Shown one piece after another: positions 60,001 to 63,000 of a stretch of 64,000 nucleotides of DNA. The DNA is from Candidatus Woesearchaeota archaeon (GTDB lineage Archaea > Nanobdellota > Nanobdellia > Woesearchaeales > WAPY01): the NCBI GenBank assembly GCA_049700835.1, contig JBNAUL010000002.1:272275-336274 (forward strand), read 5' to 3'. The position numbers are program-made. Position 1 is the first letter of the stretch; the number at the start of each line of letters is the position of its first letter.

Positions 60001-63000
60001 TTTACAACAACAAAAACCTCTAAGTTCAATCTCTTGAATTCATCAGAAAAACTTTCTATAAGCTTCGCAAGTTTTTCGGCATTAAAGCCAACACCCTCTT
60101 CATAGTTTTTAAAATTTATTATCAGAAATTTTTTTTCTGCTTTTTTTCTCTTAATTTCTTTCATAATAAAAAATCTAATTATCTTTTTGTTTATAAATCT
60201 TTTTAAAAAACAAAATTTATAAATAAAAGAGAATTTTTGTTTTTTATGATAACATACGAGCCAGTAAGGGTGCTTTTTAGAATTTTTGGAATAAACATTT
60301 ATTCTTGGGGTTTTTTTGTGAGTTTTGGAATTCTTGTTGCATTGCTAGCAGCAAGAAAAACATATAAAAAAAAATTTGAAGAGATACTAAACTCTTTTTT
60401 AATAACATTCATTTTTTCAATAATTGGCGCAAGGATTGTTTATGTTTTGCTTAACATAAAACACTTTTACTATAAACCATTAGAGATATTAAACTTTCAA
60501 GGCGGAGGGCTTAGTTTTTTCGGAGCATTGTTCTTTGGGCTTTTAGGATTCATAATGTATTTTAAAATTAGAAAGATTGATTTTAGAGAATACCTTGACA
60601 TCTATGCTGTTTTCATACCACTAGTTCAAGCATTTGGAAGGATTGGTTGTTTTTTGAACGGGTGCTGTTATGGAAATGAGACAAAAATATTCTTTGGGAT
60701 AAAGTACTTAGGGGAAATTAGGCATCCTGCTCAGATATATGAGTCATTGCTCAATTTCATTTCATTCTTGTTCATTTACAAGATTAGAAATAAGGACGAA
60801 TTAAGAATAAAAAAAATCAGGATAAAATTCTTCAATGGAATATTGTTCTTAATCTATTTAATAAATTACAGCGCAATAAGGTTTCTTGTTGAGTTCTTCA
60901 GAGAAGAGCAGAGATTATTTTTAGGATTGACAAAAACTCAGTATTTGTGCTTGTTCATAATACTAACAAGCGGATTTATCATTTATAAAAATCAAAAGAA
61001 AGAGTTAGTTAAGAAAAAAATTAGGAAATAGAAATAGAATAAGGATTGCAAATAAAAATATAAAAAGATTTTAAAAATTTAGAATTAAAAACAAAAATGT
61101 TTAATAAAAATAAGAGGATGAAAGAAAAAAAGAAGAGCGTTGAGGAACTATTAAAAGAGATTCCTGTTTTTGAGTGTGGAGAAAAACTTGTTAATCTTAA
61201 AAACTATTCTAAAAACATAGTAATAAGTTTGGATCCTGAAATTATGGAAAGAGAAGGACTGCCAGAAGATGTATGCTATGTAAGAAAAGGAGTTGCTAAG
61301 AGGTTACTAAAAGCTCAAAGATTGTTGCCAAATGGCTTTAGATTGAAGATTCAAGAGGGCTACAGAACTCTTAAGACACAAAGAAAACTTTTCATCAGCC
61401 ACTATAAAATGCTGAGAAAAAAACATCCTAATTTGGACAACAACAAAATAAAGGAGATGACTGAAAGGTTTGTTGCTTCTGCTTTCAAGTATCCTCCTCA
61501 TGCCACAGGAGGAGCAGTAGATATTACAATTGTAGGCCCTGACAACAAGGAATTGGACATGGGAACAAAGGTCAATGAAACAAGCAAAGAGTCATACACA
61601 AACTCAAAAAGGATTTCCAAGGAAGCAAGAATGAACAGGAGATTGTTGATTAGGGTTATGAGAAAGGCAGGTTTTGTTAATTACTATGCAGAGTGGTGGC
61701 ACTGGTCTTACGGTGACAGGTATTGGGCTGCTGTTTCAAAGAAGAAAAGGGCAATCTATGGAATAATAAACATTGATGTCAAAAAGATATACGAGCACAA
61801 AAAGGTAATAAAGCCAAAAAGAAAAAATAAAAAGCGAAGAACAAAAAATAGGATAATTAAGATGAAACGATGAATGAGATAATAAGAAACGACAACATAA
61901 GGATTATTGAAGAATCCGTAAATGCTTTGAAGCAAGAGAACGCCATTAAACTTAAAGAGGTAAGTGACCACACAATACACAATGCAAGCATATTTCAAGA
62001 CGAGGACTCAATAACAATCGCTGTTCTGACATATGCACTCTCAAAAATACTAGAGAGAGGAATTGAAAACCGTTACTGGTTTGAAAAGAAACTTGAGTTT
62101 GCGAAAATCCAACTCATAAAGCAAAACATAGAGTTTTACAGGAAAATGATAAAGGAAATCTTCTCCCAGATAGCAAGAATTGACTCAAAACTCAAGATTT
62201 ATGTTCAGGAGGTTATTGAAAAGGCAAAGATAAAGAAAGGAGCAAAGCTCTACTATCACGGAATATCAATGGCAAGGACAGCTTCTGTGCTTGGAATAAC
62301 CCAGTGGGAACTCATGAACTACATAGGAAAGCTTGAAGAGCCGAGAACAGCTACTGCAAACATAAAGGGAAGAATATCATTTGCAAGGAAACTGTTCAAG
62401 CAAAAATAGCAAGCGGAATTAAAGCATTATTAAAACATTAAGAGGTTTAAAGCGAGGTTAATATTATTAAGAGCATAGAGCATTGAACAAAATCCAATGA
62501 TTAAAATTTTCAATGATTAAAATGTCAAGAACAATAATATTTGATTCAGGTCCTATAATAAGCTTAACTCTAAATAACCTGCTTTGGGTCTTGGAAGAAC
62601 TGAAAAAGGAATACAATGGAACATTTATAATACCTGAAAGCGTTAAAATAGAATTGATAGACAAGCCGTTTATGACTAAAAAATACAAGTTTGAAGCATT
62701 GCAGGTGATGAAGGAAATCTACAATGGAACCCTTAACATTGTAAAGAGTAGCATAATAAAAAACAGGACACAAGAAATTCTAAACATTGCAAACACTACA
62801 TTCAAAGCCCACAACTCTTTTGTTCAAATAGTGCAGGAAGGGGAGATAGAAGCAATCTCTGCATACAAGCATTTAAACGCAGAAGCGATTGTTATTGACG
62901 AGAGAACAACGAGAATGCTCATAGAGGAACCGCATGCTTTGAAAAAACTTATGGAATCAAGGCTTCACACAAACATAGAAGTAAACAAGGAAAATTTCAT

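Follow-up and report, generated by a model that had tools for sequence, protein, structure and literature searches.

The lgt gene carried by the window (the whole stretch of 64,000 nucleotides of a Candidatus Woesearchaeota contig that was analysed) probably encodes the enzyme that opens a two-step lipoprotein maturation pathway of bacterial type in a DPANN archaeon, the enzyme pair Lgt and LspA having apparently come from bacteria and replaced AliA. Judging from the sequences, precursors with a signal peptide ending in [L/I/F]-[S/A]-G-C would be exported by Sec, Lgt would take the glyceryl-lipid part of a membrane phospholipid with a glycerol head group and attach it to the cysteine thiol, and LspA would cleave before the lipidated cysteine; N-acylation of the Lnt type would not follow. 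The acquisition of the pair would date to the root of a large clade within the class, or close to it; in this clade the pair would take the place of AliA (DUF63), and the donor lipid would be drawn from a host or the surroundings. A second, bacterial-type route to archaeal lipoproteins had been proposed in a first-pass annotation of this DNA. It is supported here by the identity of the gene, by LspA, by the lipobox substrates and by the distribution of the pair, from which we infer that Lgt is catalytically active, what lipid it takes as donor, and when and in which direction the genes were transferred.

The lgt gene and its chromosome

The gene is located on the forward strand at 60237..61031 of the window and was assigned to the Lgt-family prolipoprotein glyceryl-lipid transferases, Cys-variant ('C-type') subfamily. 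Counted from the TTG at 60237 it is a real, full-length open reading frame of 264 amino acids. The start is likely to be the ATG at 60246 (261 amino acids), because the database protein P0001, which is 100% identical, has 261 amino acids and because a TATA-like motif, TTTATAAATA (60216-60225), lies 21-30 nt upstream of this codon. The product matched PF01790 with 182.8 bits (cut-off 24.9) over profile positions 2-238 of 240 and was the only such match in the genome. Against the equivalog model TIGR00544 it scored 115.4 bits, just below the cut-off of 118.9. Both the PF01790 score with its coverage and the slight shortfall against the NCBIfam equivalog had been given in the first-pass annotation and were recovered. 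An AlphaFold2 model (pLDDT 95.1, pTM 0.89) predicted the seven-helix Lgt fold of Escherichia coli Lgt (5AZB), which was the sole match of the model in a Foldseek search of the PDB at E<=0.001 (TM 0.80/0.75). By its sequence and its predicted fold the window gene is a true member of the Lgt family. That it could be a pseudogene was considered and rejected, as no frame disruptions were seen and the motif is intact across its clade.

With E. coli Lgt (5AZB/5AZC) the window Lgt shares the Pfam family and the predicted fold (TM 0.80), and the E. coli enzyme is likewise paired with LspA and lipobox substrates. However, the two proteins are only 24% identical in the structural alignment, and the segment from the signature to the RHP motif is about 25 residues longer in E. 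coli, so that the head domain of the window Lgt would be small. The hosts also differ, since that of the window Lgt is an archaeon without lipid synthesis.

The chromosome that carries the gene is genuinely archaeal. Elsewhere in the window there are genes for the ribosomal proteins L15e and S3Ae, for OapB/OapC, diphthamide synthase and endonuclease dU, and for an archaeal helicase domain 4, Spt5 and NOG1, and the G+C content of the window is even (0.29-0.36). The organism was placed in Woesearchaeales by the names that NCBI gives to its closest proteins. The sequencing runs listed for this DNA are hot-spring metagenomes, one of them a possible source, and no RNA run was among those listed. 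Bacterial contamination or an error of binning would agree with a subfamily that is otherwise bacterial and with nearest non-archaeal relatives that are bacterial, but lgt lies inside a 439-kb contig (C2, 439,470 bases; C1, which carries lspA, has 492,456) between archaeal informational genes, the estimated contamination of the genome is 0.25% at a completeness of 98.66%, and both Lgt and LspA are encoded by four genomes of the order that are closed in one contig each (G016, G025, G085 and G097). The chance that the gene is a contaminant is thus negligible and this origin was ruled out, in keeping with the first-pass annotation, which had placed the genes within archaeal contigs of 439 and 492 kb at the same level of contamination. 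Peptidoglycan-directed enzymes were seen to adjoin lgt and the lipoprotein genes.

Signature residues and the Cys-variant subfamily

In the alignment to 5AZB the signature-motif codons of lgt (60636..60674, forward strand) read GRIGCFLNGCCYG, residues 134-146, which corresponds to E. coli G142-G154, GRLGNFINGELWG. The residues Y26, H103, R143, N146, G154 and R239 are described as absolutely required in E. coli Lgt (PMC13251419, section 13). At these six positions the window Lgt has W, F, R, C, G and R, respectively, so that three of the six differ. The phenylalanine at H103 and the cysteines at N146 and E151 had been pointed out before; the alignment shows them again, and adds the tryptophan at Y26 and a third cysteine at L152. 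The further conserved residues G104, D129, Y235, E243 and R246 are all present. Hence the earlier statement that the equivalents of R143, G154, Y235, R239 and E243 are kept is borne out, and R246 is retained as well. Natural Lgt variants with Y, W or F at H103 and C at N146 have been described, among them MSMEG_5408, a second copy with N146C in Mycobacterium smegmatis that is presumed to be low in activity (PMC13251419); the likeness of the window Lgt to this paralogue is one of description only.

Among the best 119 database relatives of the window Lgt, cysteine occupies the N146 position in all 119 and the E151 and L152 positions in 117 each, while R143 is found in 118 and G154 in 119. Within the clade of the window Lgt the proteins are 48-81% identical and the motif is intact. 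To judge from these alignments the Cys-variant subfamily is conserved and not degenerate. Apart from the archaeal members it is bacterial: Cys-variant proteins from Dehalococcoidia, Omnitrophota, Dictyoglomus, Firmicutes and Eremiobacterota MAGs carry GR(I/V)GC..NGCCYG as the window Lgt does, are 28-41% identical to it and form a common clade with it, with 99% support against the canonical proteins. Like the window Lgt they fall just below the TIGR00544 cut-off (114.3 bits for a bacterial member, against 118.9). In four bacterial genomes the Cys-variant is the only PF01790 match and LspA is present in all four; in one (G381) two lspA open reading frames lie directly upstream of lgt.

The canonical Lgt of most Woesearchaeales and allied Nanoarchaeia resembles the window Lgt in having LspA as a partner and, in some genomes, tpiA as a neighbour. 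It is only 30-36% identical to it, however, has all the residues that are essential in E. coli (each in 118-120 of 120 sequences of the order; E243 in 109 of 120) and passes the TIGR00544 cut-off (195.4 and 239.5 bits for two members). Canonical and Cys-variant proteins stand on either side of the deepest split of the Lgt tree, which has 99% SH-aLRT support. This tree was made by a quick method and has 94 rows, namely the full set of 51 archaeal locus proteins, six of the seven bacterial ones and, out of 240 database hits, 37 (23 with a name and 14 close ones without). The seven loci were those confirmed among 78 pattern matches in a search for related loci, and locus L068, which is without the Lgt motif, was left out of the tree. 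As a single row of the tree is canonical and bacterial, the split says nothing on a single origin or on the identity of the donor. In the ESM Atlas the canonical Lgt resembles proteobacterial clusters, which is a lead only and likewise bears nothing on the donor.

These residues raise the question of chemistry. The Cys-variant Lgt might modify lipobox proteins in another way than the textbook enzyme, with a different donor or head group or by thiol- or metal-dependent chemistry on its three cysteines. The constancy of the triple cysteine (117-119 of the 119 relatives) next to an unchanged R143, G154, R239 and R246, the well-supported separation from canonical Lgt, the scores below the TIGR00544 cut-off in archaeon and bacterium alike and the possibility, raised in PMC13251419, of a different substrate or mechanism in divergent groups of Lgt all argue in this direction. 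On the other hand, bacteria that have the variant as their sole Lgt possess LspA, adjacent to it in one case, which points to the ordinary pathway, and R143 and R239, to which binding of the lipid head group is ascribed, are retained. A distinct chemistry of this kind is therefore regarded as rather unlikely, and the Cys-variant is taken below as the probable first enzyme of the bacterial-type pathway.

LspA and the candidate substrates

The partner gene, lspA, is found outside the window at C1:491582-492097, with its PF01252 match at C1:491690-492070. This match (83 bits, cut-off 25, E 1.9e-23) is the only one in the genome; against TIGR00077 the protein scored 73.0 bits, marginally below the cut-off of 73.95. 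With the bacterial LspA structures of Staphylococcus aureus (6RYO) and Pseudomonas aeruginosa (5DIR) it shares the catalytic aspartate motifs and the NTG motif, and differs from bacterial LspA in its long basic N-terminal extension and its archaeal host. Alignment to 6RYO placed both aspartates of the predicted catalytic dyad in NAIDR and FNLAD. The single LspA with its Asp motifs that had been claimed earlier is thus confirmed. NTGxxFG, NxIDR and FNxAD are retained in this protein and in 13 of the 14 other archaeal LspA proteins compared, the exception being that of G385, which has glycine at the first catalytic aspartate. In the ESM Atlas the LspA of this genome resembles clusters from bacteria of candidate phyla, and Nanobdellota are represented in one structural cluster; this is a lead only and again does not bear on the donor.

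A lipobox expression applied to the 1034 open reading frames of the genome gave nine matches, six of which are convincing (Sec-type precursors with [L/I/F]-[S/A]-G-C). The first-pass annotation had counted six to seven lipobox proteins, and those it named were all recovered in this separately made set. The proteome contains 23 [LIVF][SAT]GC tetrapeptides, and the cysteine is at residues 15-45 in nine of these, against 2.4 expected (binomial P 2.7e-4). A looser expression gave as a control only an approximately 2.4-fold enrichment of cysteine because it also matches membrane helices, and was replaced by this positional test. In the family of C3:9684 the lipobox cysteine is present in eight of eight database members and in two further paralogues, down to 29% identity, and for C3:23337 in four of four true homologues. 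Chance was rejected as an explanation of the matches on the grounds of their position and of the invariance of the cysteine. Lipobox substrates exist, by the evidence of these sequences, with a candidate cysteine that is conserved in every homologue found, and the window Lgt has in its genome the company of LspA and of lipobox-bearing precursors.

Several observations nevertheless speak, at the level of sequence, against the bacterial-type pathway as the best explanation: the change of three of the six residues required in E. coli, the scores below the cut-offs, the small number of substrates (about six of 1034) and the patchy occurrence of LspA, which was detected in three of six genomes of the family, including G385. 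This corresponds to the two of five other same-family genomes that had been counted before. Taken together, they could mean that the pathway is working in most of the order and decaying in this family, the divergent Lgt and the scattered LspA, one of them with glycine at a catalytic aspartate, being its remnants; the few candidate substrates and the position of both enzymes below their equivalog cut-offs would agree with this. Against decay, Lgt is encoded in six of six genomes of the family and keeps its motif across its clade, the LspA of the genome itself has both aspartates, the lipobox cysteine is invariant in two substrate families, and no frame disruptions were seen in lgt or lspA. Furthermore, lspA lies 360 nt from the end of its contig and the other copies of the family are on short contigs, so that the missing ones may be gaps of assembly. 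Decay is accordingly held to be improbable, and a functional Lgt/LspA pathway remains the preferred reading.

Distribution of the pair, AliA and the supply of lipid

Among 101 genomes of the order, which are related and not independent, Lgt is encoded in 93, LspA in 94 and both in 87. The near-universal presence of the pair, first reported from a smaller sample (PF01252 in 55 of 61), consequently holds in the larger one, and it extends to allied families. Among 301 genomes of the class, to which the same reservation on independence applies, 106 have both, six only Lgt, three only LspA and 186 neither. PF01790 exceeded its cut-off in 111 of the 301, and the control genomes gave PF01790 and PF01252 matches in 10 bacteria and in none of four archaea; both of these results repeat those of the first-pass annotation. 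In some genomes the distance between the two genes is short (1.1 kb in G070, 1.7 kb in G307).

Archaea are stated to have no homologues of Lgt or Lsp, and archaeal lipids are argued to have demanded separate enzymes, in three specialist papers of 2025-2026 (PMC12462473, PMC13251419 and PMC13631571), which agrees with what had been said of the literature before. In Haloferax volcanii the same task, the thioether lipidation of the lipobox cysteine, has been proposed for AliA and AliB (arCOG02177/02178, DUF63, PF01889), HVO_2859, a DUF63 family protein, being the representative of arCOG02177/AliA (PMC12462473). NCBIfam was found to have no model for DUF63 proteins. PF01889 gave no match in the window genome at E<=0.1 and none in the 101 genomes of the order, whereas its control matches were confined to M. 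jannaschii, H. volcanii and M. acetivorans. In the class it was present in 96 of 301 genomes, and these overlapped with the 115 carriers of Lgt/LspA in one genome only, the Lgt match of which is below threshold (17.7 bits); 91 genomes of the class have none of the three. AliA and Lgt/LspA are mutually exclusive across the class. The check on AliA/AliB that had been left to be done thus strengthens the original reading. This exclusivity is the new element here, and the absence of AliA where Lgt/LspA is present fits a displacement of AliA, with the bacterial pair standing in its place. In Supplementary Data 3 of Hong et al. AliA/AliB are given as 0/0 in all seven Woesearchaeota rows, and Data 1 lists 12/42, 12/42 and 20/49 of the secreted proteins as predicted lipoproteins in three Woesearchaeota rows.

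The lipid that would be transferred deserves separate consideration. Bacterial Lgt uses sn-1,2-diacyl phosphatidylglycerol as donor. A profile search of the genome found neither a GGGP synthase (PF01884) nor a CDP-alcohol phosphatidyltransferase (PF01066), so that the donor lipid would have to come from a host or the surroundings; in the genomes of the order PF01884 gave only partial matches, of at most 25 bits, in 13 of 101. CarS, CdsA, PlsY and Lnt (LNT_N / CN_hydrolase) were not found among the 110 proteins of the genome with at least three predicted membrane helices. The other lipid-handling proteins of the genome are a PLD-like protein and an LPG_synthase_TM protein. Their presence, the dependence of the organism on foreign lipids and the phylogenetic non-independence of the co-occurrence counts might suggest that the Lgt-family protein does a job unrelated to lipoproteins, acting on another acceptor or remodelling scavenged lipids, and that it occurs with LspA through shared ancestry. 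Such a role is very improbable, because 106 genomes have both genes against nine with a single one, because the two are near each other in some genomes, because the pair is exclusive with the enzyme family of archaeal lipoprotein lipidation and because the lipobox cysteines are conserved.

Returning to lipoprotein maturation by the bacterial pair, we offer as a tentative extension that it displaced AliA in a large, lipid-auxotrophic DPANN clade and works there across the lipid divide. Either Lgt would have adapted to archaeol (sn-2,3 ether) from scavenged archaetidylglycerol, or the membranes would contain bacterial phosphatidylglycerol from bacterial partners; the latter option would fit the peptidoglycan-directed enzymes beside lgt and the lipoprotein genes. 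The triple-Cys Lgt may in addition be mechanistically distinct.

No earlier report of an archaeal Lgt/LspA pair was found in the openly available literature searched; such genes may be listed in articles behind a subscription or in the supplementary files of studies on DPANN genomes. Records at NCBI and JGI already name Lgt proteins, e.g. 'prolipoprotein diacylglyceryl transferase [Candidatus Woesearchaeota archaeon]', as the first-pass annotation had cautioned they might. The gap lies in the literature and not in the databases, and since automatic annotation had already given the genes their names, what is gained is recognition and context and not the discovery of an unknown family. With the LspA described here archaea have their first candidate for a lipoprotein signal peptidase, and the pair explains the group flagged by Hong et al., with many predicted lipoproteins and neither AliA nor AliB. 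It is relevant wherever Lgt and LspA are claimed as drug targets or markers specific to bacteria. The organisms are also a natural experiment in which either Lgt can act on archaeal lipids or the cells contain bacterial ones.

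Lgt family membership and the Cys-type active site

The lgt open reading frame was found on the + strand at 60237-61031 (264 codons, TTG start). An alternative ATG at 60246 would yield a 261-residue Lgt that equals the database protein P0001, and a TATA-like TTTATAAATA is located 21-30 nt upstream of this codon. Because of this length and the spacing of the motif, 60246 is the likely start of lgt. The product matched the Pfam LGT profile PF01790 (182.8 bits), and the alignment covered positions 2-238 of the 240-position profile. On the NCBIfam model TIGR00544 it scored 115.4, below the cut-off of 118.9, and the best NCBIfam model was NF000778 (148 bits versus a cut-off of 334). 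An AlphaFold2 model built from 60 aligned relatives had a mean pLDDT of 95.1 and a pTM of 0.89, and the E. coli Lgt structure 5AZB was its sole PDB match in Foldseek at E≤0.001 (E 1.2e-10, TM 0.80/0.75). The profile score and the fold match thus bear out the Lgt-family gene proposed at this position in the first-pass annotation.

The active site was examined by alignment to 5AZB, the chain numbering of which is native plus one throughout, with the residue names taken from section 13 of PMC13251419. R143, G154, Y235, R239, E243 and R246 of E. coli correspond to R135, G146, Y211, R215, E219 and R222, and Y26 is replaced by W24, H103 by F95, N146 by C138, E151 by C143 and L152 by C144. The F, C and C reported previously at H103, N146 and E151 were therefore recovered, and three of the six residues termed absolutely required in the accessible text of PMC13251419 are altered. 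Decay of the enzyme was considered as the cause of the cysteines and rejected, since the motif is kept in 117-119 of the 119 best relatives in the database: all 119 have C at the N146 position, 117 at E151 and 117 at L152. At H103 the commonest residue in the same set is Y (81 sequences); 16 have F and 11 have H. R143, G104, D129, G154, R239 and R246 are nearly invariant in it. The close archaeal kin are P0002-P0011, and P0004, a Woesearchaeota protein by its NCBI name, is 71% identical to the window Lgt. The other named relatives are bacterial (Omnitrophota, Dictyoglomus, Firmicutes, Ratteibacteria, Eremiobacterota, Syntrophomonadaceae, Dehalococcoidia).

In four bacterial genomes the Cys-variant was the sole PF01790 match, and LspA was present in all four. 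In one of the four, the MAG G381 (C97:1-1907, loci L066/L132), the Cys-variant lgt is immediately preceded by two tandem lspA ORFs in an operon-like arrangement. Because it is the only PF01790 match and LspA is present, once adjacent, the Cys-variant appears to behave as the working Lgt of these bacteria. According to the accessible text of PMC13251419, replacement of N146 by C and of E151 by C or D occurs in distant Lgts, and an N146C paralogue of M. smegmatis is presumed to be weak.

To place this variant, 51 archaeal Lgt sequences were compared (30 best-match loci of the order Woesearchaeales, 20 chosen lower-scoring loci and that of the window). Most have GRI(G/A)NFINGEL.G together with Y26 and H103; others have a CCC or C...GH form. 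The canonical Lgt of a closed genome (G025) had at least 52% identity to its best 120 database matches, in which Y26, H103, R143, N146, E151, G154 and R239 are kept in 119-120 and for which the only organisms named were Woesearchaeota, Nanoarchaeota or Nanoarchaeia. Two canonical members of the order scored 195 and 240 bits on TIGR00544. The window Lgt is only 30-36% identical to the canonical Lgt of the order, and a quick IQ-TREE analysis of 94 rows separated canonical from Cys-type sequences with 99% SH-aLRT. The clade of the window Lgt (10 rows, 100%) was located among bacterial and other archaeal Cys-types, where internal support was weak.

Triose-phosphate isomerase (59442-60164, - strand) adjoins lgt. 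It is upstream and divergent in the window genome and in G053, a genome of the same family, and downstream on the same strand as the canonical lgt in three order members; besides the window, the adjacency was seen at loci L045, L028, L031 and L063. Such a shared neighbour would be odd if Cys-type and canonical lgt had separate origins.

LspA and its putative substrates

A single PF01252 match (83 bits) was present in the genome, a 171-residue ORF (C1:491582-492097) located 360 nt from the end of its contig. Alignment to S. aureus LspA (6RYO) showed that both catalytic aspartates are kept (NAIDR and FNLAD); the TIGR00077 score was 73.0 versus a cut-off of 73.95. When a lipoprotein signal-peptide pattern was run over a greedy ORF set of 1034 proteins, nine matched, of which six were convincing, each ending in [L/I/F]-[S/A]-G-C. 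These putative precursors are encoded at C1:156891-157112, C1:199871-200515 (a DJ-1/PfpI protein), C3:9684-12882 (three tandem paralogues) and C3:23337-24086; like lspA, all lie outside the window. One of these lipoproteins is 80% identical to P0244, a Woesearchaeota protein by its NCBI name; the assignment of the organism to Woesearchaeota follows the names of P0004 and P0244.

With a looser pattern as control, the enrichment of Cys was only about 2.4-fold. A test of position gave a clearer result: the proteome contains 23 [LIVF][SAT]GC tetrapeptides, and their Cys falls at residues 15-45 in nine versus 2.4 expected (binomial P 2.7e-4). When Cys was replaced by other residues, the same positional share was 0-18% for 18 of 19; the exception was Trp, with two of only three tetrapeptides. 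In the C3:9684 family the lipobox Cys is kept by the two other paralogues and by all eight members from the database, even at 29% identity, and the signal peptide outside it drifts. The Cys is also kept in the four true homologues of C3:23337; a fifth match (E 7e-4) was rejected as not credible. This conservation is the strongest evidence that the precursors would be substrates. The proposal that LspA is accompanied by lipobox proteins was thereby upheld by the retained aspartates, the six convincing precursors and the conserved Cys.

Distribution of Lgt, LspA and AliA

In the order, 101 genomes, each of a different family, were searched with profiles. Lgt was found in 93 and LspA in 94 (both in 87, Lgt only in six, LspA only in seven, neither in one), and the pair occurs in four closed single-contig genomes. 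Among 301 genomes of the class Nanobdellia, Lgt matched 112 (111 over the cut-off) and LspA 109 (107 over the cut-off), with both in 106, Lgt only in six, LspA only in three and neither in 186; as the surveyed genomes are kin, these counts are not independent events. The distance between the two genes is 1.1 kb in G070 and 1.7 kb in G307. The same profiles matched 10/10 bacterial and 0/4 archaeal control genomes. In the family of the window genome Cys-type Lgt was present in six of six genomes, the motif itself being seen in G000 and G053, and LspA was found in three of six. Some of the misses may be due to assembly gaps, because genes are located near contig ends or on short contigs. The LspA of G385 (locus L136), a member of this family, has SNMLGR where others have NxIDR, with Gly at the first catalytic Asp, and may be inactive or reflect a sequencing error.

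HVO_2859 is the arCOG02177 representative, AliA, the archaeal lipidation enzyme, in the accessible text of Hong et al. (PMC12462473) and a 'DUF63 family protein' in that of PMC9426492, and the header of Supplementary Data 3 (PMC12462473) gives supercluster COG01967; PF01889 (DUF63) can therefore be used as a probe for AliA. Among the control genomes it matched only M. jannaschii, H. volcanii and M. acetivorans, the pattern described in the parts of PMC12462473 available. The AliA check left open by the first-pass annotation could thus be run. No PF01889 match was obtained in the window's genome at E≤0.1 or in any of the 101 order genomes. Of the 301 class genomes, 96 have DUF63 and 115 have Lgt and/or LspA. 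The only overlap was G192, whose Lgt is a 17.7-bit fragment below the cut-off. The 91 genomes with none of the three have either no lipobox lipoproteins or a third route.

In the portion of Supplementary Data 3 (PMC12462473) available, AliA/AliB are 0/0 in all seven Woesearchaeota rows, in AR15 and AR20 and in 24 of 25 Pacearchaeota rows, and most other DPANN rows have the value 1. Three Woesearchaeota rows of Supplementary Data 1 list 12/42, 12/42 and 20/49 predicted lipoproteins per secreted proteins, and the authors note that numerous predicted lipoproteins occur in some archaea with neither AliA nor AliB (PMC12462473, accessible text). At least for the Woesearchaeal members of this group, the Lgt/LspA pair provides the explanation.

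Archaeal setting, lipid donor and implications

The genomic setting of lgt is archaeal. The gene is located on a 439,470-base contig of a 1.07 Mb genome (4 contigs, completeness 98.66%, contamination 0.25%), and G+C is even along the window (0.29-0.36). A Pfam scan of 60 window ORFs revealed the following archaeal or archaeo-eukaryotic markers: ribosomal proteins L15e and S3Ae, origin-associated OapB/OapC, diphthamide synthase, archaeal D-aminoacyl-tRNA deacylase, endonuclease dU, archaeal helicase domain 4, a wyosine-formation enzyme, Spt5-NGN, TFIIB zinc ribbon, NOG1 and RuBisCO large subunit. Among 110 membrane proteins scanned across the genome were AglB/STT3, a presenilin-type signal-peptide peptidase, a prepilin peptidase, SecY and SecDF.

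Several other genes of the window were recorded. The oapB/oapC region (3970-4843, +) adjoins the most A+T-rich stretch (1-4000, G+C 0.287), and a replication origin may be nearby. The RuBisCO large-subunit homologue (14788-16110, +, 325 bits), near which no further Calvin-cycle genes were seen, presumably belongs to the nucleotide-salvage type that is common in DPANN. Two paralogous bifunctional-type phosphoglucose isomerase genes (24068-25039 and 28285-29262, both +; bact-PGI_C and SIS) are separated by 3 kb that hold an opposite-strand gene for an 818-residue AAA/SMC-like ATPase. Two products are probably large surface proteins: one of 1067 residues (45732-48932, +) has copper amine oxidase N-terminal-like domains (177.6 bits), and one of 624 residues (48958-50829, -) has a Hint module in the Pfam scan. 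Two paralogous proteins of about 197 residues (58055-58651 and 58837-59427, +) belong to no Pfam family; in each, a hydrophobic helix follows a short basic N-terminus, an arrangement resembling archaeal class III (pilin-like) signal peptides.

The ORF that follows lgt after 66 nt (61097-61873, +) encodes a VanX-like D-Ala-D-Ala dipeptidase (Peptidase_M15, 71.7 bits, without signal peptide). Outside the window, genes for two M23 peptidases (C3:7296-9470 and C1:159947-161605) were found, one of which immediately precedes the tandem trio of lipoprotein genes. That an archaeon encodes such peptidoglycan-directed enzymes hints at a bacterial partner or prey.

With respect to the lipid donor, no match in the genome was found for CDP-alcohol phosphatidyltransferase (present in 13/14 controls) or GGGP synthase (4/4 archaeal controls), nor were CarS, CdsA or PlsY among the 110 membrane proteins, which included one UbiA-family protein in a glycan-type neighbourhood. 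In the order, matches to PF01884 were confined to 13 of the 101 genomes, and all were partial (≤25 bits). Because these lipid-synthesis genes were not found, the phospholipid used by Lgt is predicted to be scavenged, and would be either bacterial phosphatidylglycerol or archaeal archaetidylglycerol. A membrane-anchored double PLD-domain protein (C2:77029-78114) and an LPG_synthase_TM protein (C1:291877-292914), both encoded outside the window, might remodel scavenged lipids.

In the accessible text of three papers (PMC12462473, PMC13251419 and PMC13631571) archaea are described as having no Lgt/Lsp homologues, and full-text literature searches that paired the enzymes with DPANN, Woesearchaeota or Nanoarchaeota yielded no report of them there. 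NCBI and JGI records do name these proteins prolipoprotein diacylglyceryl transferase of Woesearchaeota or Nanoarchaeota archaea. The kind of enzyme and the annotated genes are therefore already known; the novelty lies in the recognition of a clade-wide Lgt/LspA pathway in archaea and of its exclusivity with AliA. Taken overall, the gene, its partner, the substrates and the distribution support the earlier interpretation of a bacterial-type route in this archaeon. On the sequence evidence, it is highly probable that the order has a working lipoprotein pathway, and probable that one operates with the Cys-variant of this genome. A known kind of enzyme is thus met in an unexpected domain, the Archaea.
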